Source: an uncultured Solirubrobacteraceae bacterium
GTDB taxonomy: Bacteria > Actinomycetota > Thermoleophilia > Solirubrobacterales > Solirubrobacteraceae
Reading direction: 5' to 3'
Assembly (NCBI GenBank): GCA_963746795.1
Contig: CAVVCR010000002.1
Span: 45,712-109,711 of the forward strand
Length of the DNA: 64,000 bases
The notes under the pieces are model-generated. The model ran no database searches. It was given only the letters and a program-made list of their open reading frames with translations, and was not told the origin of the DNA. The position numbers and the translations under genes were made by a program. Shown here piece after piece: positions 10,317 to 45,600 of the stretch; within the stretch, counting starts at the first letter, position 1, and each line of letters starts with the position of its first letter.

Positions 10317-11939
10317 ATGTCCCCGCTCCTCAGCCTACGCGCGCCGGTGAGCGTCAACGCCCGGCTGCTCGCAGCGTGCGCGGTCACGGCGGCGCTGGCC
10401 GCGGTCGTGGCGCTGAGCGCCGGGAGTCACCCCGAGTCGTCGGTCGCCGTGCCGGTGACGCTCGCGGTCGGCGCGATCTGCGCCGCGCTGGTCGCCCATC
10501 TCCTGCACGCTTCCGCGCGCGCCGTCAGCGATCACCGGCTGCGCTGGATGGCCGCAGGCGTCACCGTGGCCCTGGCCGGACAGGTCGCCGGCGTGCTCGG
10601 GCAGCCGACGCTGTTCCCCGACGGCGGGCCGGTCGACCAGGGCGCCGACGCCGCCGCCGCCCGCTACGTGATCTGGCACGCGGCCCTGCTCGTGGCGAGC
10701 GCGCTCGCGGTCGCGGGCGTCCGCGCCCGCTCGCGGACGCTGGTGATCTTCACCGGGACCGCGATCGCGCTGCTGGCCTACGCCTCCCTCTCCCCCGCTC
10801 CCCTCGGCGACCTCGCCGATCCCGACGGCGGCCACGCGCCCGCCCTCCGCGCCGCGGTCGCCCTCCTCGCCGCCGGCCAGCTCGCGGTCGTCGCCGCGTG
10901 GTGGCGCCGCGCGGGAGGCGCTCCGACCTGGGGCGAGGTGTGCGTGATCGCGCTCACCGCGCTGTCGGGCCTCGACGCCGTCTCCTACCTGCTCGCCACG
11001 GAGCAGTACGCGGGCGCGTGGTGGGCCAGCCTCACGCTCCGCGCCGGCCAGTTCGCGGTGCCCGCGGTCGGCCTCGTGATCGGCTTCGTCGCGGTCGCCG
11101 ACCGGCTGCGCGAGCTGCAGGAGGAGCTCGGCCGCGGCCTCGAGGCCGAGCGTGAGCGCGCCCGGCGGGAGGAGGAGATCGCCGGGCTCGACCGCCGCCG
11201 CCGAGAGCAGGCGCGCGAGCGGATCGCCCGGCTGGCGGGCGGCGACGGGCTCGACGTCGCGCTGCAGCCGATCTTCGCGCTCGACAGCGGCGGCGTCGTG
11301 GGCGCCGAGGCGCTCGCGCGGTTCACCGACTCCCACGGCGAGCCCCTGCCGACCGAGGAGACGTTCGTCGACGCGCATGCGCTCGGACTCGGCCCCGAGC
11401 TCGAGCTGGCTGTCGTCGAGCTGGCCATCAGCCGCGAGGACCGGCTTCCGGACGGCCTCTACCTGGCGTGCAACGTCTCCCCTTCCGTCCTCACCCGAGC
11501 CGACCTGGCGGCCCTCCTCGCCACCAGCGAGCGCCCGCTCGTCGTCGAGCTGACCGAGCACCACGCCGTGGAGGACTACGCCGAGCTCGACGCGGCGCTC
11601 GGGCGCCTGCGCGCCTTCGGGGTGCGCGTGGCGGTGGACGACGTCGGCTCGGGCTTCGCCTCCTTCCGGCACGTGACGCGCGTCAGGCCCGAGATCCTCA
11701 AGCTCGACCGCACACTCGTATGCGGCATCGACGAGGACCCGGTGCGCCAGTCGCTCGCCTCGGCGATCGTCGGCTTCGCCGGCGACGTGGGCGCCACCGT
11801 GGTATCGGAGGGCATCGAGTCCGAGGGTGAGCTGACCTGTCTCGTCGACCTCGCCGTCGGCTGCGGGCAGGGCTTCTTCCTCGGACGGCCCGAGCTCGGC
11901 CGCTTCGAATCGCGCGCCGCCCAGCTCGCCGCACGCTGA
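10317..11939 (+). CDS. membrane-sensor EAL-domain c-di-GMP phosphodiesterase
   Basis: 540 aa. About 7-8 N-terminal TM helices are followed by a coiled linker and an EAL domain. The catalytic motifs are intact: GAEALAR, NVS, ELTE, DDVGSG, KLD, EGIES, GQGF. Confidence 0.85.
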   Translation: MSPLLSLRAPVSVNARLLAACAVTAALAAVVALSAGSHPESSVAVPVTLAVGAICAALVAHLLHASARAVSDHRLRWMAAGVTVALAGQVAGVLGQPTLFPDGGPVDQGADAAAARYVIWHAALLVASALAVAGVRARSRTLVIFTGTAIALLAYASLSPAPLGDLADPDGGHAPALRAAVALLAAGQLAVVAAWWRRAGGAPTWGEVCVIALTALSGLDAVSYLLATEQYAGAWWASLTLRAGQFAVPAVGLVIGFVAVADRLRELQEELGRGLEAERERARREEEIAGLDRRRREQARERIARLAGGDGLDVALQPIFALDSGGVVGAEALARFTDSHGEPLPTEETFVDAHALGLGPELELAVVELAISREDRLPDGLYLACNVSPSVLTRADLAALLATSERPLVVELTEHHAVEDYAELDAALGRLRAFGVRVAVDDVGSGFASFRHVTRVRPEILKLDRTLVCGIDEDPVRQSLASAIVGFAGDVGATVVSEGIESEGELTCLVDLAVGCGQGFFLGRPELGRFESRAAQLAAR

Positions 11940-13205: not shown

Positions 13206-14639
13206 CTAGGCCGCGGCGCGGACGGCGCCGCCGGCCCAGTCGAGCGCCTCGCCGTAGGCGCCGGCGAGCTCTCCGCCCGCCGCGGGGAACTCGCCCTGCT
13301 CGTACGCCATCACGGTGCTCAGGAGCTCGCCCTTGGGGCCCTCGCGGGTCAGCAGCGCGTCGCGGATCTCGTCCGAGAACGGCAGCGTCTCCAGCACGTC
13401 GTCCATCGGAGCGTCGAGCAGCGCGTCGGCGACCGAGAAGAGGCCCACGGTGAAGTGCGCATCGGCGGCGTCGCCGCCCAGCTTCTCGCACATGCGCGCA
13501 CGCTGGAGCGCGAGCTCGATCAGCTCCTCGGGCGCGCCCGAGGCCGAGGCGAGCGCCATCACGGTCGCCCACCGGCGCACGGTCGCTGTCCCGAGAAGGG
13601 TGAGCGCCTCGTGGACGGACTCGACGTTGCGGGGGAGCGCGAAGAAGGCGGAGTTGACGTAGCGCAGCAGCTTCAGCGACAGCCCGACGTCGGAGCTGAT
13701 GGCGGCCTCGAGCTGCTCGAAGGTGGCGTCGGGCGCCGCGACCTCGGCCAGCGTGCGCAGCGCGGCCACCCCGCCCGTGCCGACCCGGCGCTGCCGGGTG
13801 AGGTCGGGCTTCGCGTAGAAGTCGCCCTGGAAGACGGTGAAGCCCAGCGCCCGGGCGCGAGCGAGCTCGGCCGGGCTGGCGACGCCGGTGGCCACGAGCG
13901 CGAGCCCGGCGGCGAGCGGAGCCTCGACGGCCGCGCGCAGCTCCTCGTCGCTGCGGCCGGGGACCGGCACCCTGAGCATCGCGCAGACCGGCGCGATCGC
14001 CTCGTCGAACTCCTCCATGACCAGCGTGTAGCCGCTGAACTGCAGGCGCTGGAGCGCAGCCACCACGTCCGGGGAGGCGGGGCCGGTGGTCAGCTGCAGC
14101 ACGACCCGGTCCGGGCGCACCGGCGGCGTGCCGATCTCGAGCAGGAACTCGGGCGTCATCGTCAGCCACGCGGGATGGCGGCCGGAGAGGCGCTCGAGCC
14201 CGATGTCGCCGAACGCGTCAAGCAGCAGCCCGGCGGTCGCCTGTGACCCGGCGGCGTCCTCGCCGCCCTCGACGACCAGCTCGTAGCCGAGCACGGAGCC
14301 GTCGGCGTCCGTCAGCGGGAGCCGCACGACCGCGATGTCGCGCGGGTCAGGCGCCTCCGCGGCGAGCACGGCCTCGAACTCGGGCTCGGGCTCGGGCTCC
14401 GCGGCGAGCTCCTCGAAGTCGTGCAGGGCGTACTCGGCCGGGAAGCCGTCCCCGAGGCTCTTGCGCGTGGTCTTGGCCGTGAAGCTCCGCTCCCCCACCA
14501 CGACGGTCACGGTCACCGCGCCGGCGGCGCCGTCGAGGCCGGCGCCGGTGAGCACGAGCGTGTCGCTCGAAGGCGCCGGCGGCGGTGGTTGCGGCGGGGG
14601 CGGGGTCCGGCGGCCGAAGAGCGAGCTGAAGAAGGACAT
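13206..14639 (-). CDS. degenerate-EAL plus HDOD domain protein (YuxH/CdgJ-like) with a Pro-rich N-terminal extension
   Basis: 477 aa starting at MSFFSSLFGRR. The EAL-like domain has lost catalytic signatures: GYELV replaces EAL and MEEFD replaces DDFG. It retains QGDFYAKP. An HDOD region follows (LKLLRYVNSAFFALPRNVESVHEALTLLG). Confidence 0.75.
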   Translation of the reverse strand: MSFFSSLFGRRTPPPPQPPPPAPSSDTLVLTGAGLDGAAGAVTVTVVVGERSFTAKTTRKSLGDGFPAEYALHDFEELAAEPEPEPEFEAVLAAEAPDPRDIAVVRLPLTDADGSVLGYELVVEGGEDAAGSQATAGLLLDAFGDIGLERLSGRHPAWLTMTPEFLLEIGTPPVRPDRVVLQLTTGPASPDVVAALQRLQFSGYTLVMEEFDEAIAPVCAMLRVPVPGRSDEELRAAVEAPLAAGLALVATGVASPAELARARALGFTVFQGDFYAKPDLTRQRRVGTGGVAALRTLAEVAAPDATFEQLEAAISSDVGLSLKLLRYVNSAFFALPRNVESVHEALTLLGTATVRRWATVMALASASGAPEELIELALQRARMCEKLGGDAADAHFTVGLFSVADALLDAPMDDVLETLPFSDEIRDALLTREGPKGELLSTVMAYEQGEFPAAGGELAGAYGEALDWAGGAVRAAA

Positions 14640-14683
14640 CCTCCGACGAGGATCGGCCGGCGCGGGGCAAGCTTGAGGCGGCC

Positions 14684-15814
14684 TCAGACGTCGACCCACG
14701 CGCCGCCGCCGGCGGCCGAGGCGAGCACGGCGTCGGTGATGCGGGCGGTACGCAGGCCGTCGGCGAAGCGCGGCAGGCCGTCCGGCTCGCCGCCGGCGAT
14801 CGCCGCGTAGGTGTCGGCCACGAAGGCGTCGAAGCACTCGAGATACCCCTGGGGATGGCCCACCGGGACGATCGCGTGGCGGGCGGCCGCGGGGCTGAGC
14901 AGCGTCGCGTCACGCCACAGCTCCTCGGTGCGCTCGCGCCGTCCGACCCACAGGGTCTCCGGCCGCTCCTCCTCGAAGCGCACGCTGGCGTGCTCGCACG
15001 CCACCTCCACGTGCAGGTGGTTCTTGCGGCCCGGAGACACCTGGCTGACCACCATGGTGCCGACCACGCCGGAGGCCGTCCGGAACATCACGGCGGCGAG
15101 GTCCTCGGTGTTCACCGCGCGCCGCGGAGCGTCGTCGTCGCCAGCGGCGGAGAAGGCCGGTGCCGACCCGCGATCGGCCCGCTCGGGCACGACCGTGGCG
15201 GTCTGGGCGCAGAGGGCGGCGATCCGCTCGCCGCTGACGAACTCGGTCAGGTCGCACCAGTGCGAGCCGATGTCGGCGAACGCGCGCGAGGCGCCGCTCA
15301 GCTCGGGATCGACCCGCCACGAGTCGTCCTCCGGCCGCGAGAGCCAGTCCTGCAGGTAGCCGCCGTGGAGGAGGCGCACCCGGCCCAGCTCGCCGGCGGC
15401 GATCCGCGCGCGCGCCTCGAGCGCCATCGGGTTGTAGCGGTAGACGAACGGCACGGTGGCGACGCGGCCGGCCGCCTCGGCGGCGGCCGTGACGGACTCG
15501 GCCTCGGCCCCGTCGAGCGCGAGCGGCTTCTCGCACACGACGTGCTTGCCCGCCGCCAGCGCCGCGCGCGCGAGCGGCGCATGGAGGTGGTTCGGCGTGC
15601 AGAGGTGCACGACGTCGACGTCGTCCGCCGTCGCGAGCGCCTCGGCGTCGGCCTCGGCACGCTCGGCGCCGAGCCGCGCGGCGGCCTTCCGCGAGCTCTC
15701 CGGGCTCGAGGCGGCGACGCCGACGATGCGCGCCCCGGCCAGGCGCGCGGACCGGGCGTGGACCGCGCCGATGAAGCCGGCCCCCACGATCGCCGCGCCG
15801 AGCGTCTCCTCCAT
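14684..15814 (-). CDS. Gfo/Idh/MocA family oxidoreductase
   Basis: 376 aa starting at MEETLGAAIVGAGFIGAVHA (Rossmann fold), with the EKP motif in VVCEKPLA. Confidence 0.85.
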   Translation of the reverse strand: MEETLGAAIVGAGFIGAVHARSARLAGARIVGVAASSPESSRKAAARLGAERAEADAEALATADDVDVVHLCTPNHLHAPLARAALAAGKHVVCEKPLALDGAEAESVTAAAEAAGRVATVPFVYRYNPMALEARARIAAGELGRVRLLHGGYLQDWLSRPEDDSWRVDPELSGASRAFADIGSHWCDLTEFVSGERIAALCAQTATVVPERADRGSAPAFSAAGDDDAPRRAVNTEDLAAVMFRTASGVVGTMVVSQVSPGRKNHLHVEVACEHASVRFEEERPETLWVGRRERTEELWRDATLLSPAAARHAIVPVGHPQGYLECFDAFVADTYAAIAGGEPDGLPRFADGLRTARITDAVLASAAGGGAWVDV

Positions 15815-15844: not shown

Positions 15845-16192
15845 GTGCGCTTGATCCTCGTCGACGAGCTCCGGGAGTACCCGCACACCACGCTCCCTTA
15901 CAAGCACTGGAGCCACATGGTCAGCGACGAGAGCTTCGACGAGCTGCACGCGTTCGCCGCGCGGCTGGGCATCGCCCGGCATCGGTTCCAGGGCGACCAT
16001 TACGACCTTCCGGCGTTCGTCCACGCGCGGGCTGTGGCCGCGGGGGCCGTGGAAGTGGGGACGCGCGAGCTGACCGCGCGCATGGTGGGACCTCGCGGGG
16101 ACCGCGTGCGAGCGCGGCGGCGGCAAGGCCGGGCGTCAGCGCCCCATGCGACGAAGGCCCCCCACGGCCAGCGCGCCCAGGAACAGGGCTAG
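15845..16192 (+). CDS. DUF4031 family protein
   Basis: 115 aa with a GTG start. MRLILVDELREY...WSHMVSDESFDELHAFAARLGI...FQGDHYDLP matches my recollection of DUF4031. The 3' end overlaps the convergent ABC permease gene by 57 nt. Confidence 0.6.
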   Translation: MRLILVDELREYPHTTLPYKHWSHMVSDESFDELHAFAARLGIARHRFQGDHYDLPAFVHARAVAAGAVEVGTRELTARMVGPRGDRVRARRRQGRASAPHATKAPHGQRAQEQG

Positions 16193-16903
16193 ACCCATGA
16201 GAGCGGCGACCCCCGGCAACGTGTGCGCGAGGCTCGGCTCGATCCCCACGACCGTCGCCTGCCGGGCCATCTCGAGCACGTAGGTGACCGGGTTGTACTC
16301 GGCGACCGCGGCCAGCCATCCGCGCAGCAGCACCACCGGCGTGTAGGCGGTCGAGAGGAAGACGGCGAGGAAGACGCCCTGCTGCATCAGCGGCCCGGCC
16401 TGCTGCGTGCGGAACGTCACCGCCATGAAGATCCCCCACAGCGCGGCGATCGCGCAGAAGCTCGCGGCGGCGACGTAGAGGAGCACGAGCCCCACCACGC
16501 CCCCGGTCAGCTCTGCGCCGATCGCGAGCCCCACGAGCAGCACCACGGTGGCGGGCACGAGCGAGCGGGTGACGGCGCCGAGGATCGGGCCGATCACGAG
16601 CACCGGGCGCGGCACGGGCGCGACCAGCAGGCGGTCGAACCAGCCCTGCTCGATGTCGCGCGCGAGGTTCGACCCCGTGGCGGCTCCCGCGAAGCCGGCT
16701 CCCTGGAGGCACGACAGCGGGACGATCCACGACAGGTAGGAGTCGGTCGGGAAGCCGTCGAGCCCGGTCAGGCGGCCGAACTGCCCGCTCATCCCGAGCA
16801 TGAAGACCACCGGCGCCACGGTGGCGGGCAGCAGGGCGCCGCGCACGCGCAGCACCTCGTTGAGCGAGCGGCGCCAGAGCGTAAGTGCGACGGCGGCGCT
16901 CAT
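16136..16903 (-). CDS. ABC-2 type transporter permease
   Basis: 255 aa starting at MSAAVALTLWRR, with 6 TM. ATGA overlap with the upstream permease gene. Confidence 0.8.
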   Translation of the reverse strand: MSAAVALTLWRRSLNEVLRVRGALLPATVAPVVFMLGMSGQFGRLTGLDGFPTDSYLSWIVPLSCLQGAGFAGAATGSNLARDIEQGWFDRLLVAPVPRPVLVIGPILGAVTRSLVPATVVLLVGLAIGAELTGGVVGLVLLYVAAASFCAIAALWGIFMAVTFRTQQAGPLMQQGVFLAVFLSTAYTPVVLLRGWLAAVAEYNPVTYVLEMARQATVVGIEPSLAHTLPGVAALMGLALFLGALAVGGLRRMGR

Positions 16904-17682
16904 GTGCGGCGCAGCCGCTCCTTCAGCGCAAGGGTCGACAGGGCGGTGGTGGCGATCGCCGTCCCGAGCGCGGCCAGCAGTCCGAGCCACGGGTCGCCGA
17001 GCTCGGCATCGCCGGCCAGCAGGCCCCGCACCGCCTCGACCACGTAGGTCAGCGGGTTGAAGGCCGAGACGTCCCGCAGCACCGGCGTGAGCAGCTCCTG
17101 CGGGAAGAACGCCGGCGCGGTGAAGAGCAGCACGAACATGAACGGGAACAGGCTCTGGAGCAGCGACAGCGAGCCCGTCCGCAGCGCGATCGCCGCCGAC
17201 ACGCCGCCCATCCCCACCGCGGTCACGCCCGCCAGCCCCACCGTGGCCGCGACGCCGAGTACCCCGCCGGGGTACTCCGCGCCGAACGGCAGCGCCACGA
17301 CGAGGAAGAAGCTCGCCTGGAGCAGCGCGAGGACGAGCGTCCCCCACAGCCGGCCGAGCACGAGGCTCGTACGCCGCACCGGCGCCGCCAGCAGCCGGTC
17401 GAAGAACCCGAACTCGATGTCCGAGGCCATCGCGATGCCTGTGGTCAGCCCGGCGAGGATCGTGCCCTGCACGATCGTCCCGGGCACCACGAACGTGAGG
17501 TACGAGGCGACGTCGGGAAAGCCGCGCAGCCCCTGTGCGGCGCTGGTCCCGCTGGCGATCACCGCGAGCAGCATCAGCGGGAGCACGAACGTCGGCATCA
17601 GGAGCTGGGCGCGGCGGAACTGCACGCTCGTCGCGCGGCGGCCGAGCGCGGCCACGACCCGCCACTCCTGCGCCACGGTCAT
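16900..17682 (-). CDS. ABC-2 type transporter permease
   Basis: 260 aa starting at MTVAQEWRVVAALG, with 6 TM. ATGA overlap with the ATPase stop. Confidence 0.8.
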   Translation of the reverse strand: MTVAQEWRVVAALGRRATSVQFRRAQLLMPTFVLPLMLLAVIASGTSAAQGLRGFPDVASYLTFVVPGTIVQGTILAGLTTGIAMASDIEFGFFDRLLAAPVRRTSLVLGRLWGTLVLALLQASFFLVVALPFGAEYPGGVLGVAATVGLAGVTAVGMGGVSAAIALRTGSLSLLQSLFPFMFVLLFTAPAFFPQELLTPVLRDVSAFNPLTYVVEAVRGLLAGDAELGDPWLGLLAALGTAIATTALSTLALKERLRRT

Positions 17683-19501: not shown

Positions 19502-20382
19502 CTACTTGCGGCAGGCGGAGTACGAGCGCGACGCCTTGTACGTCTTGCGGTCGGACGCCTTCACGACGACCGAGATCGTGGTCCGGCGCGTGCTGAGCTT
19601 GCGCAGGGTGATCCGCTTCAGCGCCTTGCGGCCCTTGACCTTCGTCTTGCGGTTCACGGCAACCTTCGCGGACTGCAGCCGGCCGCCGTACGGAGCGCGC
19701 AGCCGGAAGCGCATCTGGCGCGCGCGCACACACGAGCCCGCACGCGGGAGCCCGAGCCGGTCGGCGAGCGACACGGTCGGCCCGGGGCGGGCGGGAGCAC
19801 GACGGGCGGCCCCGGGGGCGCTGGCGTCGGCGTCGGCGTGGCCGGCACGGCTATCGCGGTGGCGCCCCACAGGAGCCCGAGGGTCATCGCAGAGCCCTGG
19901 AAGCGGTTGGGGTCGCCGGTCGGGAGCGCGAGCGTGGCCGCGAACTCGTATTCGCGGGCGCCGCCGCCCGCCACGGTGCCGGCGGCGAGCTCGGTGAAGC
20001 CGGCGAGCGGGCCGTCATACAGGGTCGCGGGCGCGGCCGGGGCCGTGATGTCGACCACGCGCAACAGCAGCGAGTCGGAGAGCTTGCCCCCGCCCGCCCC
20101 CGGCACGTCGACGACCGCGCCTCGGCCGAGCACGAGCCGCCCGCCCAGCACGCCCGGGTTGGCGATCCGCACCGTGCCGCTGAGCTGGTCGCCCGGCCGC
20201 ATGCCGGCCGCCCCGAGAACCGCCAGGCCCTCGCGGGAGTTGACGATCGCGATGTCGCCGGTTCCGGACATGAGGCGCATGCCCTCGGCCTCCCGGCGGT
20301 CCTGCGGGGGAGCCGCGAACGCGAGCCCGAGCGCGGACAGGGCCATGCCGAGTGCGGCGACGAGGGGGAGCAGGCCACGCAT
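19502..20382 (-). pseudogene. TasA/camelysin-like secreted protein with a Pro/Thr linker and a K/R-rich C-terminal beta-domain; interrupted by a -1 frameshift as sequenced
   Basis: It has a signal peptide (MRGLLPLVAALGMALSALGLAFA) and a TasA-like core (MRPGDQLSGTVRIANPG, FQGSAMTLGLLW). After PATPTPTPAPPGPPVVLPPAPG the open frame becomes shadow-like. The coding-looking continuation (PTVSLADRLGLPRAGSCVRARQMRFRLRAPYGG...KASRSYSACRK) lies in another frame and ends at 19502. The span of 881 nt is not a multiple of 3. Confidence 0.55.
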
Positions 20383-22451
20383 CAGAAGTCCGAGTCCGCG
20401 GTGCCGCTCTCGGTGACCGTCGTGGTCGAGCTCGCCTTGCCGCTCACGTCGAGCGCCGAGGCGGAGGGGCGCCACGAGATCGCGCCCGTCGCCGTCGAGG
20501 TTGCCAGGGAGCCGCCACCCGAGACGACGCTTCCGAGCGTGACGGTGATCGTGTTGCCGTTGCGCACCATCGTCCCGTTGAGGACCACCGCCCCGCTGAC
20601 GTAGTTGCGGGCCAGCTGGAGGTCGGTCGCCGTGCGCACGAGGTTCAGCCGTGTCGTGTTGGCGGCGTTGTAGAAGTCCATCCGGTCGTTGTTCGCACTG
20701 TTCGTGAGGCGGACCGTGATCGCCGTCGCGCTGCCGTCCCAGCCGGTGAGCACGGAGGCGGGCGCGATCGGCTCGCTCCACGTCAGCGAGATCGTGTCGC
20801 CCGCGTCAGGCCGGCCGGCGATGGCGCCGCCCGACGTCGTCTGGACGCCCACGCCGAACGGCGCGACGTTCTCGACGAACCGCGACGTCACGACAGAAGA
20901 CGCGGTCCGCGGGAAGTTGTCGGTGGCCACCGCGCGGATGTCGTAGAAGGCGTCGGCGACCGCCGTCGTGTTGAACGAGCACGTATAGGGCGCGGCGGTG
21001 TCGGCGGCGCAGATGTTCGTCCACGTCCCTGCGCCCGCCGGCGAGCGCTGGAAGGTCACGTTGGCGATGCCGCCGCCGTCGGACGCGGTGGCGTTGAGCG
21101 TCACGGTCCCGGTCAGCGGAGTGCCCGGGTCGGTGAGTGAGACCGTAGGCGCCACGTTGTCGACGCGCCGGTTCGTGATGGTGGTCGACCCGAACTGGTT
21201 GCCCGCCGCGTCGGTGGCGAGCGCGCGCAGCTCGTACATGCCGTCGGCGACGGCCGCGGTCGCCCACGCGCAGGAGTAGTTGGACGGCGCGGTCACCGTC
21301 GTGTCGGTGCACCCGTCGAGCCACGTGGTGTCGCCCACCAGGCGGTACTGCGGCTTCCACGAGGCGATGCCCGAGCCGGTGTCGGTCGCCGTGCCGCTGA
21401 GCGTGACCGAGCCCGAGAGCGGCGAGCCCGGGTTGGTGAGCGTCGAGGTGGCGGGCACCGCGTTGTCGATCCGGAACGTCGTCACGGCGCTGGTCGTGAT
21501 GAAGCCCGCGTTGTCCTCCACGATCGCCTGCAGGTCGTACACGCCGTCGGTGCGGGTCAGGGTGTCGAAGCTCGAGCACTCCCACGGCGCCGCCGTGTCG
21601 ACGGCGCACAGGTTCGCCCACGCGCCGACGCCCTGCCGGATCTGGATCGTGACCTGCTTGACGCCGGAGCCGGCGCCGTCGCCGGTCGTGACCGGGACCG
21701 CGATGGTGCCCTTCACCGGCCCGAGGGCTGGGATCGAAGCGGTCGGAGCGTTGTTGTCGACGGTCCGCGTGGAGACGGAGTCGTGCTCGTTCCCAGCCGC
21801 GTCGGTGGCGCGGGCGCGCAGCTCGTGGGCGCCGTCGGCGAGCGTCGTGCTGTCGAGCGCGCACACCTGCGGCGACGTCAGACCCGAGCACAGCGTGGTC
21901 CACGACCCGCCGGCCGGGCGATGGGCGATGCTGAGCGAGGCCAGGCCGCTGAGGACGTCGCTGCCGGTCGCGGTCAAGATCTCGGTGCCCCTGACGACGC
22001 CGGGGTCGCTCAGGCTCGCCACCGGCAGCGCGTTGTCGAACAGCCGCGCGAGCACGGTCGACGAGCGCTGGTAGCCGGCCTGGTCGACGGCCGTCGCGCG
22101 CACGTCGCGCAAGCCGCCGGCCACGCCGGCCGAGTCCCAGTCGCAGGCATAGGGTGCCGAGGTGTCCTCGCAGGCGTCGGTCCACGTCCCGGCGCCGGCC
22201 GGAGAGGTCTGGAAGCGCACGCGGTCGATGCCGCGCTCGGAGCTCGCGGTGCCGGACAGCGAGACGACCCCGCGGTGCGGGGTCCCCGGGTCGTCCATCG
22301 AGACGGCCACGGTGTTGAAGTCGGCGGCCGCCGCGAAGGCGTTGCCCGGGGAGCTCGACGCGGGCACGAAGTCGGCGCCGGAGGCGGTCATCCCGGTGGC
22401 CGCGGCGACGACGGCCGCGATCGCGAGCCAGGTGGAGACGAGGCGCTTCAC
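20382..22451 (-). CDS. secreted Ig-like-domain repeat protein with a SipW-type signal peptide
   Basis: 689 aa with a GTG start that overlaps the sipW stop (GTGA). The N-terminus is KRLVSTWLAIAAVVAAATGMTASGADFVPASSSPGNAF. Five repeats of about 95 aa each carry a Cys pair and the motif ...ADG.Y.LRA.ATDAAGN...VDN.AP. A distinct C-terminal region of about 170 aa follows. Confidence 0.8.
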   Translation of the reverse strand: MKRLVSTWLAIAAVVAAATGMTASGADFVPASSSPGNAFAAAADFNTVAVSMDDPGTPHRGVVSLSGTASSERGIDRVRFQTSPAGAGTWTDACEDTSAPYACDWDSAGVAGGLRDVRATAVDQAGYQRSSTVLARLFDNALPVASLSDPGVVRGTEILTATGSDVLSGLASLSIAHRPAGGSWTTLCSGLTSPQVCALDSTTLADGAHELRARATDAAGNEHDSVSTRTVDNNAPTASIPALGPVKGTIAVPVTTGDGAGSGVKQVTIQIRQGVGAWANLCAVDTAAPWECSSFDTLTRTDGVYDLQAIVEDNAGFITTSAVTTFRIDNAVPATSTLTNPGSPLSGSVTLSGTATDTGSGIASWKPQYRLVGDTTWLDGCTDTTVTAPSNYSCAWATAAVADGMYELRALATDAAGNQFGSTTITNRRVDNVAPTVSLTDPGTPLTGTVTLNATASDGGGIANVTFQRSPAGAGTWTNICAADTAAPYTCSFNTTAVADAFYDIRAVATDNFPRTASSVVTSRFVENVAPFGVGVQTTSGGAIAGRPDAGDTISLTWSEPIAPASVLTGWDGSATAITVRLTNSANNDRMDFYNAANTTRLNLVRTATDLQLARNYVSGAVVLNGTMVRNGNTITVTLGSVVSGGGSLATSTATGAISWRPSASALDVSGKASSTTTVTESGTADSDF

Positions 22452-23002
22452 GCCGGGGCCTCCGCGCTGCGGCGAGCGGCCTCGGCGCCGAGGCGGCGCC
22501 ACAGGCCGGCGAGGCTGAGGGCGGCGAGCAGGAGCGCGGGGAGCGTGACGACCGCGGTCCGCACGTCGCGCCGCCCGAGGGCGGCGAGCGCATGGCCGGC
22601 GTAGGGGATGCCGTAGCGGACGCGGGCCTGGGTCGGCTGGCTGAGCCGGAACGTCCACGGGTCGGCGACCGGGTTCGCGTCGCCCCGCGTCCGGAACACC
22701 CGCTGGCCGGCGTCGTCGCGGCCCATCCAGGCGATGCGGTGGGTGATCAGGTGATCGGGACCCGCTCCGGCGGGAGGCTCGTAGGTGATGACGTCGCCGA
22801 CGCGCAGCTCGGCGACGGGGACGACCTCGGCGAGCACGAGCGAGCCCTGGTCGTACGTGCCGGTCATGGAGCCGGAGACGATCGCGTAGCGCTGCCAGCC
22901 CCAGAGGGCCGGAGCCAGCGTCGCCAGCGCGGCGAGCACCGCAACGGCGAGCGCCGCGCCGAACGCAAGGCGCCCGGCGCGGCGGATCATCCCGTTCCCC
23001 AT
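22448..23002 (-). CDS. sipW: signal peptidase I, SipW/archaeal-ER type (S26B)
   Basis: 184 aa with an N-terminal TM, the SGSM nucleophile motif, ITHRI (His), RGDAN and a C-terminal TM. It is embedded between TasA-like genes. Confidence 0.85.
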   Translation of the reverse strand: MGNGMIRRAGRLAFGAALAVAVLAALATLAPALWGWQRYAIVSGSMTGTYDQGSLVLAEVVPVAELRVGDVITYEPPAGAGPDHLITHRIAWMGRDDAGQRVFRTRGDANPVADPWTFRLSQPTQARVRYGIPYAGHALAALGRRDVRTAVVTLPALLLAALSLAGLWRRLGAEAARRSAEAPA

Positions 23003-23020
23003 GAAGCTGCCTGCTGCGGT

Positions 23021-23615
23021 CTAGGAGACCGCGTTGAAGTCGAACTCGACGCTCGACGTGTCGCCCTGGTAGTTGTCGTTCGCGCTGCCGTCGAGCTGGA
23101 CCGTGAACTCGTAACGGTGCTTCTCGTTCGCGTCGTAGGTGCCAAGGGCGTCGATCTCGTGGCCGGCGGTGCCCATCTGCGCGATGGTGCCGCCGGTGAA
23201 CTTGACGACGTCGTCGCCGCCGGCGCCACAGACCGGCGGGGTGCCGCCCACGAACTCGCCGCAGTCGGTGACCGTGATGTTGAGCTTGCCCGAGAGCGGG
23301 TTGGCGCCGTCGTTGTCGACAGGCGCGGTGCGCGAAAGGGTGAACGCGCCGCTGAGGCTGCCGGTGTTCTCGATGTCGACGGTGCCGGTGGCCGACGGGA
23401 CCGCCGGGGCGCAGGTCGCTGGCCGTCAGCACCGCGACGCCGTCCTTGGAGTTGTCGATGCTCAGGGTGCCCGCGGCGAACGTGTTCGCCGGGTTGGCCG
23501 AGGCAGCCGAGAAGTTGGCGCCCGAGCCGACGACGGCGCCGGCGGCGAGCAGCAGGGTGAGAAGCGCGCCCAGAGCGAGCTTCGGCTGGCCCACGAGGAC
23601 CTGGAGACGGGACAT
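23021..23615 (-). pseudogene. TasA/camelysin-like protein with a SipW-cognate signal peptide; interrupted by a +1 frameshift as sequenced
   Basis: The frame from ATG 23615 reads MSRLQVLVGQPKLALGALLTLLLAAGAVVGSGANFSAASANPANTFAAGTLSIDNSKDGVAVLTASDLRPGG and then turns shadow-like. The continuation (PSATGTVDIENTGSLSGAFTLSR...YQGDTSSVEFDFNAVS) lies in the frame of the 76-aa track ORF. The span of 595 nt equals 3n+1. Confidence 0.6.
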
Positions 23616-23667
23616 GTCGGGATGGCTCCTTGGGGGAGGATGGTGTGCCTATTCGGGCGTCGGATCT

Positions 23668-23765
23668 CGCCCTTGCCGGCAACCGAGCCATCTCGCGTGT
23701 GGACGAGACCTCTGGCTTTGCGTCCCCGCCTCACGACGGGTTTGCCTTGGTCAGCACCCTCGGTA
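23668..23765 (-). promoter_or_regulatory. c-di-GMP-I (GEMM-I) riboswitch aptamer in the leader of the tasA-like/sipW operon
   Basis: The minus-strand RNA reads AAGGCAAACCCGUCGUGAGGCGGGGACGCAAAGCCAGAGGUCUCGUCCACACGCGAGAUGGCUCGGUUGCC. The GGCAAACC, GNRA-capped hairpin, GGGACGCAAAGCC and GGUUGCC blocks match the Vc2 aptamer as I recall it. An AAGGAG RBS and ATG 23615 follow about 50 nt downstream. The boundaries are approximate. Confidence 0.8.
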
Positions 23766-23834
23766 TCGGGTGCCCACCCCATTTCCTTTAGGGACTGGAC
23801 GAATAGACACCAGCCTCCGCCTATGCTCCACGCC

Positions 23835-24302
23835 ATGTCAGACGGCGTCGTCATGACCGAAGCGGACCGCCGGTCCCTCGAGGCCGAGTTGCACGAGCTC
23901 GAAACCGAAGGTCGCGCGGAGATCGCCGACCGGATCCGGACGGCGCGCGAGTGGGGCGACCTCAAGGAGAACGCCGAGTATCACGACGCGAAGAACTCGC
24001 AGGCGATCCTCGAGACGAAGATCCTGCGCCTGCGCGACCGGCTGCTGCGCGCCGAGGTTGTGGAGGCGCAGCCGGGCTCGGCCGTCGCGCGCTTCGGGAG
24101 CCGCGTGCGGCTCGTCGACCGGGGATCGGGACGCGAGCTCGCCTACACGCTCGTGTCGGCGGTCGACGCCGATGCCGCACAGGGCCGGCTGTCGGTCGAG
24201 TCCCCGGTCGGCCAGGCGCTGCTCGGTACCGCCGCGGGCCAGACCGTCCAGATCGCGACCCCTCGGGGAACGCGCGACCTCGAGGTCGTCGCCGTCGACT
24301 AG
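23835..24302 (+). CDS. greA: transcription elongation factor GreA
   Basis: 155 aa. The sequence MSDGVVMTEADRRSLEAELHELE...REWGDLKENAEYHDAK shows a Gre N-terminal coiled coil and a C-terminal FKBP-like domain. Confidence 0.9.
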   Translation: MSDGVVMTEADRRSLEAELHELETEGRAEIADRIRTAREWGDLKENAEYHDAKNSQAILETKILRLRDRLLRAEVVEAQPGSAVARFGSRVRLVDRGSGRELAYTLVSAVDADAAQGRLSVESPVGQALLGTAAGQTVQIATPRGTRDLEVVAVD

Positions 24303-34124: not shown

Positions 34125-34197
34125 TGGGCCGGGGTGGATTCGAACCACCGCACGACGGATTATGAGTCCGCTGCTCTAACCCCTGAGCTACCGGCCC
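34125..34197 (-). tRNA. tRNA-Met (anticodon CAT; elongator-type, Ile2/lysidine not excluded)
   Basis: The reverse complement is GGGCCGG-TA-GCTC-AGGGGTTA-GAGC-A-GCGGA-CTCATAA-TCCGT-CGTGC-GGTGG-TTCGAAT-CCACC-CCGGCCC-A. This folds by hand as a canonical 73-nt cloverleaf. The G1-C72 pair argues against an initiator. CCA is not encoded. Confidence 0.9.
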
Positions 34198-38130: not shown

Positions 38131-38213
38131 ACGGATTTGCGCAAGAGATCCGCGCCACGAGCGTTATCGCTGTCGGTACCGTGGACACCGCGGTGGCAGG
38201 ACGTGTGACCGAC

Positions 38214-38939
38214 ATGGACGAAGACACCCTCCTGCAGGCTCGCCTCGACCGCACCGAGCGGGAGGCCCACGCGCGCCAGCAGCAGCTCGAGCGCTACGCC
38301 GCCGACCTGCGCGAGGTCTTCAAGCAGGAGCGCAGCCGCGCGCAGCAGCTGCGGCAGTCCTACAAGGCCACCGTGAGGGCGCTCTCGAACGCCGTCGAGG
38401 CCCGCGACGCCTACACCGGCAAGCATGCCGAGCGTGTCACGGCGTACGGGATCGCGCTGGCCGAGGCGATCGGGATCGACACGGTCGGAGCGCCCGGGCT
38501 CGAGTTCGGCTTCCTGCTGCACGACGTGGGCAAGCTCGCGGTGCCCGACGCGATCCTCTTCAAGCCCGCCGCGCTCAGCGCGGAGGAGTTCTCGCTCGTC
38601 GCCCGCCACCCGGAGGTGGGGGCCGAGATCCTGCGCGACGTGGACTTCCTGGGCGAGGGCAAGCTCGTCGTCCGCCACCACCACGAGCGCTGGGACGGCG
38701 CCGGCTACCCCGACCGCCTGGCCGGCGACGCCATCCCACTCCCCGCGCGCGTGTTCGCCGTCGCCGACGCGCTGGACGCGCTCACCACGGACCGGCCGTA
38801 TCGCCGCGCGACCCGCTTCTCGCGGGCGCGCGAGGAGATCCGCTCGAACGCGGGCTCGCAGTTCGATCCCGCCGTCGTGGCCGCCTTCGACACGATCCCG
38901 GACGCGCGCCTGGCCGAGATCCGGGACGCGGTGACGTGA
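38214..38939 (+). CDS. HD-GYP domain c-di-GMP phosphodiesterase
   Basis: 241 aa. An N-terminal coiled coil is followed by TGKHAERV, LLHDVGK and HHERWDGAGYP. The start is approximate. Confidence 0.85.
   Translation: MDEDTLLQARLDRTEREAHARQQQLERYAADLREVFKQERSRAQQLRQSYKATVRALSNAVEARDAYTGKHAERVTAYGIALAEAIGIDTVGAPGLEFGFLLHDVGKLAVPDAILFKPAALSAEEFSLVARHPEVGAEILRDVDFLGEGKLVVRHHHERWDGAGYPDRLAGDAIPLPARVFAVADALDALTTDRPYRRATRFSRAREEIRSNAGSQFDPAVVAAFDTIPDARLAEIRDAVT

Positions 38940-45527: not shown

Positions 45528-45600
<73 letters not shown>

Follow-up and report, generated by a model that had tools for sequence, protein, structure and literature searches.

A conserved cyclic di-GMP-I riboswitch, probably acting on translation, in front of a TasA/SipW-type operon of Thermoleophilia

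The locus described here lies in 64,000 nucleotides (nt) of DNA from an uncultured Solirubrobacteraceae bacterium (contig CAVVCR010000002.1), and this whole stretch is called the window below. An intergenic region at 23616-23834 separates an operon of four genes, the first of them tasA-like, from a divergent greA gene that starts at 23823 or 23835 on the plus strand, the gap between the ATG at 23615 and greA being 220 nt. On the strand of the operon this region carries an aptamer of the cyclic di-GMP (c-di-GMP) class I, also named GEMM-I. We propose that it belongs to a riboswitch which Thermoleophilia have kept in front of a TasA/SipW-type operon and which probably acts on translation. The features of the leader and of the operon are as follows.

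23787..23790, minus strand: TAAA, -35 element of a predicted WhiG/sigma-28-type promoter (motif)
23763..23770, minus strand: CCCGATAC, -10 element of the predicted WhiG-type promoter (motif)
23674..23756, minus strand: c-di-GMP-I (GEMM-I) aptamer (cmscan, comparative fold)
23655..23672, minus strand: spacer hairpin GGGCG-AGAUCCGA-CGCCC (minimum free energy, MFE, folds)
23642..23649, minus strand: GGCA-C-ACC element, proximal half of the predicted alternative (ligand-free, or apo) fold (RNAduplex, MFE)
23635..23639, minus strand: CCUCC tract, candidate anti-Shine-Dalgarno sequence (weak local pairing with GGAG)
23621..23631, minus strand: Shine-Dalgarno (SD) sequence AAGGAG, 23631-23626, with the overlapping GAGCCAUC, 23628-23621 (RNAalifold)
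23021..23615, minus strand: gene 1, TasA/camelysin-like secreted protein, about 197 amino acids (frame plot, PF12389)
22448..23002, minus strand: gene 2, SipW-type (archaeal/ER-type) signal peptidase I, 184 amino acids (TIGR02228)
20382..22451, minus strand: gene 3, protein of about 689 amino acids with immunoglobulin (Ig)-like domains Big_7, Big_13 and Big_3_3 (Pfam)
19502..20382, minus strand: gene 4, second TasA-like protein, with a Pro-rich linker and a basic C-terminal domain (tblastn)

A cmscan search of the whole window against Rfam returned one riboswitch, at 23755-23674 on the minus strand, and two tRNAs; a permissive Rfam scan of 23550-23900 gave nothing further credible. The aptamer matched RF03167 (c-di-GMP-I-GGC) with 63.9 bits (cut-off 59, E 8.9e-13) over model positions 1-80 of 80. 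The c-di-GMP-I models are covered by Rfam clan CL00126, for which only the best model per site is reported, and the RF03167 hit in the window is accompanied by one lower-scoring overlapping match of the clan above its own cut-off. In three further scans the number of such left-out matches was exactly that of the sites with RF03167 as the best model (1, 13 and 10), tRNAs adding none, so the left-out match in the window should be RF01051, at no less than that family's gathering score, i.e. at least 35 bits (the gathering score of RF03167 is 59 bits). By this reckoning the RF01051 score, on which the initial annotation had staked its assignment of a GEMM-I riboswitch, lies above the cut-off of 35. 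Orthologous leaders that differ by a few bases and have RF01051 as their best model score 54.6-64.3 bits.

The P1 stem is formed by UGCUG (23756-23752) and CGGCA (23678-23674). The first hairpin, CCCGUC-GUGA-GGCGGG at 23740-23725, carries a GNRA loop, and the second one spans 23717-23681. All the minus-strand strings quoted in the initial annotation are present: AAGGCAAACC-CGUC-GUGA-GGCG-GGGACGCAAAGCC at 23748-23714, the GUCUCG/CGAGAU hairpin at 23709-23690 (strands 23709-23704 and 23695-23690), GGUUGCC at 23684-23678, AAGGAG at 23631-23626 and the ATG at 23615. The aptamer was correctly placed upstream of AAGGAG, the distance being, however, 43 nt (58 nt to the ATG) rather than about 50 nt.

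Conservation of this leader was assessed in 56 fetched loci which encode relatives of gene 1 and are designated by L-numbers. About 35 of them, independent of each other, bear the aptamer at an equal distance from the start codon, about 130 nt upstream of it, and each of the 33 aptamer-bearing orthologous leaders scanned reached the gathering score of a c-di-GMP-I clan model. Such a score in the window and such a recurrence lie far outside what chance would give. The aptamer is absent from more distant homologues, e.g. L033, L037, L040 and L043-L053. When 25 distinct leaders were aligned, the canonical fold was paired in 98.3% of cells, compared with 31-48% in a slid-partner control, and none of 500 shuffles reached the observed values. 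Compensatory changes were found in four pairs, within P1 and the second hairpin. The 25 leaders vary little in sequence, and hardly any change is seen in the first hairpin, CCCGUCG(U/C)GAGGCGGGG, even across leaders whose proteins are only 57-97% identical.

Two observations stand beside this comparison. Codons 2-4 of gene 1 (UCC CGU CUC; 23615-23603) repeat the 5' strand of the first hairpin (23740-23725), and CGU is a T-ending Arg codon, unusual at this third-position GC content. In the full-leader MFE structure these codons pair with the 3' strand of the first hairpin, and such a pairing may form a second sequestering helix over the start codon. At L040, 3697-3839 on the minus strand of that locus holds a c-di-AMP riboswitch (RF00379, 60 bits), located directly upstream of an aptamer-less tasA homologue and on the opposite strand; it presumably controls the divergent gene.

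The fact that RF03167 is the best model both for the window and for 24 of 33 scanned orthologues of its leader (which makes 25 of 34) could be taken to mean that the RNA is a c-di-GMP-I-GGC variant, with an altered binding core and possibly a different ligand. The bases expected to contact the ligand point the other way. We take the contacts G20, A47 and C92 of the Vc2 aptamer to be equivalent to G23746, A23719 and C23679, and the letters GGC in the name of RF03167 to denote positions 20, 47 and 92. G23746 aligns by cmscan to the G that precedes GC-AAA. A23719 aligns to the position after GACGC, which is A in the RF01051 consensus and G in that of RF03167; A47 of Vc2 intercalates between both guanines of c-di-GMP. 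Of the unpaired bases that link the second hairpin to P1, C23679 is the second. At the three equivalents the window thus reads G, A and C, which on this alignment is the canonical set. The window has GACGCAAAGCC in the place of GACGCGAAgCc in the RF03167 consensus, the match line being blank at the A/G column, and the canonical A follows GACGC in every tasA leader collected (all read GACGCAAAGC), including all those for which RF03167 is the best model.

Genuine G-variants do occur in metagenomes, namely L064 (70 bits) and L070 (59.3 bits), and they have the same compact high-GC architecture as the window, which explains why RF03167 scores high on the latter; neither of them adjoins tasA or sipW. 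The G-variant core was found in none of the tasA leaders, and a metagenome scan for it gave 56 stretches, none adjoining tasA/sipW and many of them chance matches inside genes. Judged by its sequence, the window RNA is a canonical c-di-GMP-I aptamer, predicted to bind c-di-GMP, and we consider its assignment to the GGC variant very improbable. The case illustrates a pitfall of annotation, as Rfam would mislabel the canonical aptamers of this lineage as GGC variants. The tetraloop of the first hairpin is GUGA in the window and GCGA in some orthologues, both being of the GNRA type, and the alignments show a deletion of the 11-nt receptor segment found in the RF01051 consensus; docking of the loop into a plain helix is possible. 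Three orthologous leaders, L013 (3864-3942), L016 (3-81) and L030 (3864-3942), have U at the C92 equivalent (GGUUGUCAGC), and this substitution could alter ligand affinity or specificity.

The initial annotation had described the genes behind the leader as a SipW/TasA-like fibre operon of a high-GC actinobacterium, and together with the clan CL00126 match above its gathering score, the profiles Peptidase_M73 and TIGR02228 uphold that description. The frame-corrected protein of gene 1 matches PF12389 (Peptidase_M73) with 23.5 bits (gathering score 22.5), the match spanning only its N-terminal 70 residues. All 14 aligned homologues of gene 1 match the same family, the best with E 1.4e-6. Homologues numbered 1392; the best 120 of these 1392 are full-length, nearly all of 194-197 amino acids, and many homologues carry the JGI name 'spore coat-associated protein N'. 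The N-terminus has a SipW-type signal region (..SGANFSAASANPANTFAAGTL..). In a sequence search of the PDB the best matches were TasA entries 5of1 and 8aur, weak ones (E 0.03). The AlphaFold2 model of the protein is all-beta and of low confidence (predicted local distance difference test, pLDDT, 63.6); Foldseek against the PDB gave generic weak beta-sandwich matches, among which the TasA-like archaeal bundling pili 7ueg ranked 15 (E 5.6e-3). Such models speak neither for nor against TasA homology. What underlies the label 'TasA-like' is the combination of a profile match, a SipW partner and a signal region.

The product of gene 2 matches NCBIfam TIGR02228 with 71.2 bits (cut-off 51.85); its second-best match, the SipW equivalog, reaches 50.7 bits, under the cut-off of that model. 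Gene 3, placed by tblastn with the L001 and L002 orthologues, encodes an N-terminal signal region resembling that of gene 1. The orthologue of gene 4 in L002 has 301 amino acids, and the N-terminal domain of gene 4 matches gene 1 weakly in tblastn. The order tasA-like, sipW, Ig-domain gene, second tasA-like gene is kept behind the leader in L001-L006, the close and distant relatives that were inspected. Nearly all homologues of gene 1 come from metagenome-assembled genomes (MAGs) that carry the labels Solirubrobacteraceae, Gaiellaceae or Thermoleophilaceae, which makes the host an actinobacterium of the Thermoleophilia.

Two of the reading frames are broken in the window. In gene 1 one extra G is found near 23393 (GTCGGCC, compared with GTC-GCC in L001, L007 and L008), and in gene 4, near 19787, DNA alignment shows a run of four C where L001 has five. 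The L001 contig, 97-99% identical, has genes 1 and 4 in frame at those sites and a break of its own at about 11080, which fuses genes 3 and 4. Such breaks look like the homopolymer indel errors of long-read assemblies and not like pseudogenes. An open reading frame (ORF) of 1077 amino acids at 20382-23615 on the minus strand was rejected as a gene, the plot of third-position GC showing it to be an off-frame read-through of three genes. Likewise, two ABC-2 permease genes are covered by a neighbouring ORF of 509 amino acids at 16136-17665. In a sequence as GC-rich as that of the window, ORF lists made mechanically mislead.

Transcription of the operon most likely starts at a WhiG/sigma-28-type promoter directly upstream of P1, as judged from the motif TAAA-N16-CCCGATAC at 23790-23763. 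This motif ends 6 nt before the 5' strand of P1, and the transcript should therefore begin at the aptamer or just before it. The consensus for WhiG/sigma-28 is T(A/C)AA as the -35 element, N16, and GCCGATAA as the -10 element (PMC12871210, PMC8325347), and a promoter has been called when it lies at most 200 nt from the start codon, CGA is exact and at most one mismatch occurs in -10 positions 1-2 (PMC12871210); the motif in the window has all these properties. The pattern TAAA-N15-17-CCGAT occurs once in the 64 kb, both strands considered, where 0.05 occurrences are expected. Moreover, T(A/C)AA-N15-16-(G/C)CCGA keeps a constant spacing to the aptamer in about 24 of some 34 distinct leaders that bear one, and in most aptamer-bearing leaders its -10 element ends 15-19 nt before GGCAAACC. 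No sigma-70-like promoter was found in 23500-23950. Thermoleophilia and Rubrobacteria are reported to have WhiG together with a single-motif RsiG, which needs c-di-GMP to bind WhiG, the pair being described for Conexibacter, Patulibacter and Thermoleophilum (PMC8325347).

In several homologues lacking the aptamer a WhiG-like motif is found near the start codon. Some MAGs contain pairs of paralogous tasA-like loci (L012/L043, L019/L033, L020/L047, L017/L022, L021/L031, L013/L041 and L027/L028); within these pairs the riboswitch is present on both copies in some MAGs and on one only in others. L033 and L047 have a WhiG-like promoter without an aptamer, which suggests that at the tasA-like locus the promoter is older than the riboswitch.

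The segment downstream of the aptamer contains an alternative set of partners for the aptamer's own 3' half. Its GGCA-C-ACC element is complementary to GGU-UGCC of the aptamer (23684-23678), including the C92 equivalent and the first base of P1. AGGCA is conserved in most leaders, and the UGCC/GGCA helix has a counterpart in L030, where the aptamer reads UGUC and the platform GACA. Further downstream, GAGCCAUC (23628-23621), which overlaps the GAG of the SD sequence, is complementary to GAUGGCUC (23692-23685) of the second aptamer hairpin. This long-range helix, which joins the aptamer to the SD region, was recovered by RNAalifold from 16 leaders, and it covaries: the pair equivalent to G23689-C23624 is G-C in 10 leaders, A-U in 6 and broken in none, and the neighbouring U-A pair becomes U-G in three. 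In register, long-range pairing amounted to 68%, compared with 34-47% when shifted. The alternative helix appears in the full-leader MFE structure of the window and of many orthologues.

The region from the 3' half of the aptamer to the AUG folds with -33.8 kcal/mol (z -3.57, none of 200 shuffles being as stable), the spacer hairpin supplying part of this stability; among 15 other leaders, eight have a z of -2.6 or less. Compared with the aptamer plus platform, the predicted stability of the alternative fold is greater by 5-22 kcal/mol, a gap that is within reach of ligand and tertiary energy, or of co-transcriptional kinetic trapping. In the minimal leader L054, the SD sequence and the 5' strand of the second hairpin are direct pairing partners; sequestration of the initiation region is stronger there with the real aptamer than with any of 25 shuffled versions.

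These pairings suggest the following mechanism. In the absence of ligand, GAUGGCUC-GGU-UGCC (23692-23678) would pair with GGCA-ACC (23649-23642) and with GAGCCAUC (23628-23621), the spacer hairpin bringing the two partner elements of the aptamer strand together. Such pairing would destroy P1 and the second aptamer hairpin and bury the ribosome-binding site. Binding of c-di-GMP would lock the aptamer and free the SD region, and the operon would be translated. As the alternative fold uses up P1 and the second hairpin and masks the SD sequence, the ligand should free the latter, i.e. the switch should be a translational ON switch. A canonical c-di-GMP-I riboswitch on the mRNA of the four-gene operon, predicted to turn translation initiation on, is the reading that we favour, with moderate confidence; its ON direction, which we infer from the competing folds, is moderately supported.

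Several observations weigh against this proposal. The RF01051 bit score of the window itself is masked by clan competition and was deduced, not read. The energy needed to open the SD/AUG region averaged 8.2 kcal/mol in full leaders and 7.5 kcal/mol when the aptamers were dinucleotide-shuffled, a difference that is not significant, and only 21 of the 33 leaders had a real value above the shuffled mean; without any aptamer the energy averaged 5.5 kcal/mol. This comparison does not discriminate between ON and OFF, because in a context so rich in GC the C-rich initiation region finds a partner in any G-rich sequence upstream. The SD sequence of the window is predicted to be mostly paired in both states (probability of being unpaired 0.07 vs 0.11), owing to the local CCUCC/GGAG hairpin, and among the leaders the effect of the aptamer on the unpaired probability of the SD sequence is mixed. 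The six A-U sequences may belong to one clade and go back to one evolutionary change. About a third of the leaders (e.g. L013, L026, L030 and L034) have no GAGCYAUC element and must use other pairings. Finally, if RsiG holds WhiG inactive at high c-di-GMP, as it does in relatives, an ON switch would oppose the promoter.

Some of the same data could be accommodated by a switch of the opposite sign. In such a scheme the apo aptamer strand would hold the tract CCAUCCUCC (23643-23635) and leave the SD sequence free; the ligand would withdraw GAGAUGG, and the released tract would pair with the SD sequence and block translation, which is the logic of the thiM switch. CCAUC(C)UC is indeed partly complementary to GAGAUGG, a CCUCC...GGAG hairpin is present in the window and in roughly two thirds of the leaders, and the SD sequence is predicted to be paired when the aptamer is closed. 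The promoter fits as well: a WhiG-type promoter together with the biology of the RsiG-(c-di-GMP)-WhiG complex (PMC8325347) would make expression at low c-di-GMP coherent, both controls having the same sign. On the other hand, the local hairpin, which the initial annotation had put forward as a CUCC/GGAG structure sequestering the ribosome-binding site, exists but is no more stable than shuffles (-7.4 kcal/mol, z -0.57), the long-range helix being better supported, and similar C/U tracts precede the SD sequence in the aptamer-less leaders L046 and L048. In the clade with GAUAGCUC in its aptamer, complementarity is confined to an element that overlaps the SD sequence (GAGCUAUC) and does not extend to an upstream anti-SD element. 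Full-leader MFE structures, moreover, pair the aptamer strand with the SD side. We regard an OFF switch as possible but doubtful.

The SD sequence of the window is flanked by a direct repeat, CCAUCC...CCAUCC (23643-23638 and 23625-23620), which in the group of L012, L017, L020 and L021 reads AUCCGUC...AUCCGUC. The upstream copy of the repeat is unexplained by the mechanism proposed above.

The aptamer might also act mainly on elongation or stability of the transcript and not on ribosome binding, by means of Rho-dependent termination, of a U-less 'I-shaped' terminator at the GGGCG/CGCCC hairpin, or of altered access of RNase. The stable hairpin at 23672-23655, located between the aptamer and the SD region, has counterparts of differing sequence at the same position in most longer leaders, and downstream of it the leader is rich in C, as would favour the loading of Rho. 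Rho termination is often a secondary effect of translational riboswitches. However, no U tract follows the hairpin, an intrinsic terminator scan found no terminator-like site in the leader, and the hairpin is missing from the compact, functional-looking leaders L026, L034, L038, L041 and L054. Besides, it lies inside both conformers and is compatible with either, and the complementarity that covaries is the one involving the SD region. We find a primary action on elongation or stability improbable, and return to the ON switch at translation initiation.

If this ON switch operates on a transcript made by WhiG, the operon would be gated twice by c-di-GMP with opposite signs, the promoter being turned off via RsiG and translation turned on via the riboswitch. 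We put this forward as a speculation, rather unlikely as matters stand. Were it true, the circuit would be incoherent and TasA-like fibres would be made only in an intermediate band of c-di-GMP concentration; alternatively, a pulse of expression would follow when c-di-GMP rises on pre-made mRNA. We know of no description of protein- and RNA-based sensors of c-di-GMP arranged in series on one transcript.

Genes of c-di-GMP metabolism are present elsewhere in the window, as the initial annotation had noted for EAL, HD-GYP and PilZ proteins. EAL proteins are encoded at 10317-11939 (plus strand) and, as an EAL-HDOD protein, at 13206-14699 (minus strand), and a protein of the HD_5/HD-GYP type at 38181-38939 (plus strand); the PilZ protein was not found by a motif scan and two Pfam batches, which covered part of the ORFs. 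A second WhiG-like motif, TCAA-N15-GCCGAT at 14652-14676 on the minus strand, lies between two genes, after the stop of that for an oxidoreductase (14684) and ahead of the point where the EAL-HDOD gene (13206 to about 14618, minus strand) probably starts; with 0.39 occurrences expected by chance it is weak when taken alone. WhiG promoters precede diguanylate cyclase and phosphodiesterase genes in Rubrobacter (PMC8325347). Both tRNA genes are on the minus strand, at 34125-34197 (71.6 bits) and 45528-45600 (71.8 bits), and are unrelated to the riboswitch.

The class of c-di-GMP-I riboswitches has been known since 2007-2008, and the occurrence of class I and class II c-di-GMP riboswitches upstream of adhesin and pilus genes is established. 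Like RF01051 and Vc2, the aptamer in the window consists of two hairpins closed by P1, the first with a GNRA loop, has the core GGCAAACC...GGGACGCAAAGCC...GCC with canonical bases at the three ligand-contact positions and, as members of RF01051 do, it occupies the 5' leader of a gene of the surface/adhesion type. It differs from RF01051 in its compact second hairpin without the consensus CUAAG/UAUG 11-nt tetraloop-receptor segment, in the high-GC Thermoleophilia host, in the tasA/sipW-type operon downstream, and in a platform that is predicted to be translational, terminators being common in Firmicutes. RF03167 resembles it in overall compact architecture and sequence but has G in place of the A after GACGC.

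A related c-di-GMP-I riboswitch, whose platform and promoter type appear to differ from those of the window, is Bc2. This switch is located in Bacillus thuringiensis upstream of the collagen adhesion protein gene cap, whose expression is promoted at high c-di-GMP (PMC4933901). In both cases a class I switch precedes a secreted surface or adhesion gene, and the direction of Bc2 is that predicted for the window; however, Bc2 belongs to another phylum and controls a single adhesin, whereas the switch in the window precedes a fibre-assembly operon.

As regards the genes, tasA operons of Bacillus are controlled by protein repressors (SinR) and are not known to depend on a riboswitch. Loci suitable for comparison are the tapA-sipW-tasA operon of B. 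subtilis and the sipW-tasA/calY loci of B. cereus (PMC9674648, PMC4292775). There, as in the window, a gene of the TasA/camelysin family adjoins a dedicated SipW-type peptidase and accessory secreted proteins, and TasA shares with the gene 1 product a SipW-type signal region. The sequence similarity is, however, only distant (23.5 bits in Pfam; E 0.03 to TasA in the PDB), the gene order in the window is tasA-like, sipW, Big-domain gene and second tasA-like gene, and the fibres are here predicted from the genes. With the (RsiG)2-(c-di-GMP)2-WhiG system the locus shares a promoter that fits the WhiG2 consensus T(A/C)AA-N16-GCCGATAA, WhiG dependence in the window being, unlike in that system, a motif match only (PMC8325347, PMC12871210). 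In Rubrobacter, WhiG drives genes for a surface filament (type IV pilus) besides those for diguanylate cyclases and phosphodiesterases (PMC8325347). The word riboswitch is not mentioned in either of these two papers on WhiG, and so neither of them (PMC8325347, PMC12871210) describes a WhiG target with a c-di-GMP riboswitch in its leader.

The riboswitch class is thus a known one, but its association with tasA/sipW genes and its occurrence in the Thermoleophilia lineage appear not to have been described. The initial annotation knew of no such case either, and in our full-text literature search, the coverage of which was incomplete, no paper linked a c-di-GMP riboswitch to TasA, SipW or camelysin; novelty is accordingly claimed provisionally. 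A c-di-GMP riboswitch in front of a surface-fibre operon will not greatly surprise a specialist, yet it is useful and testable. About 35 conserved, compact, high-GC representatives are added to the c-di-GMP-I class, with an apparently translational platform whose alternative helix is open to compensatory mutation. There is also the possibility that the riboswitch and the RsiG-WhiG switch both read c-di-GMP on one gene. Thermoleophilia are deep-branching soil actinobacteria, abundant and poorly studied, known here only from MAGs. In these bacteria the leader would tie c-di-GMP directly to an operon for extracellular fibres of the TasA/SipW type, and it may offer a testable handle on how they decide to build surface fibres.

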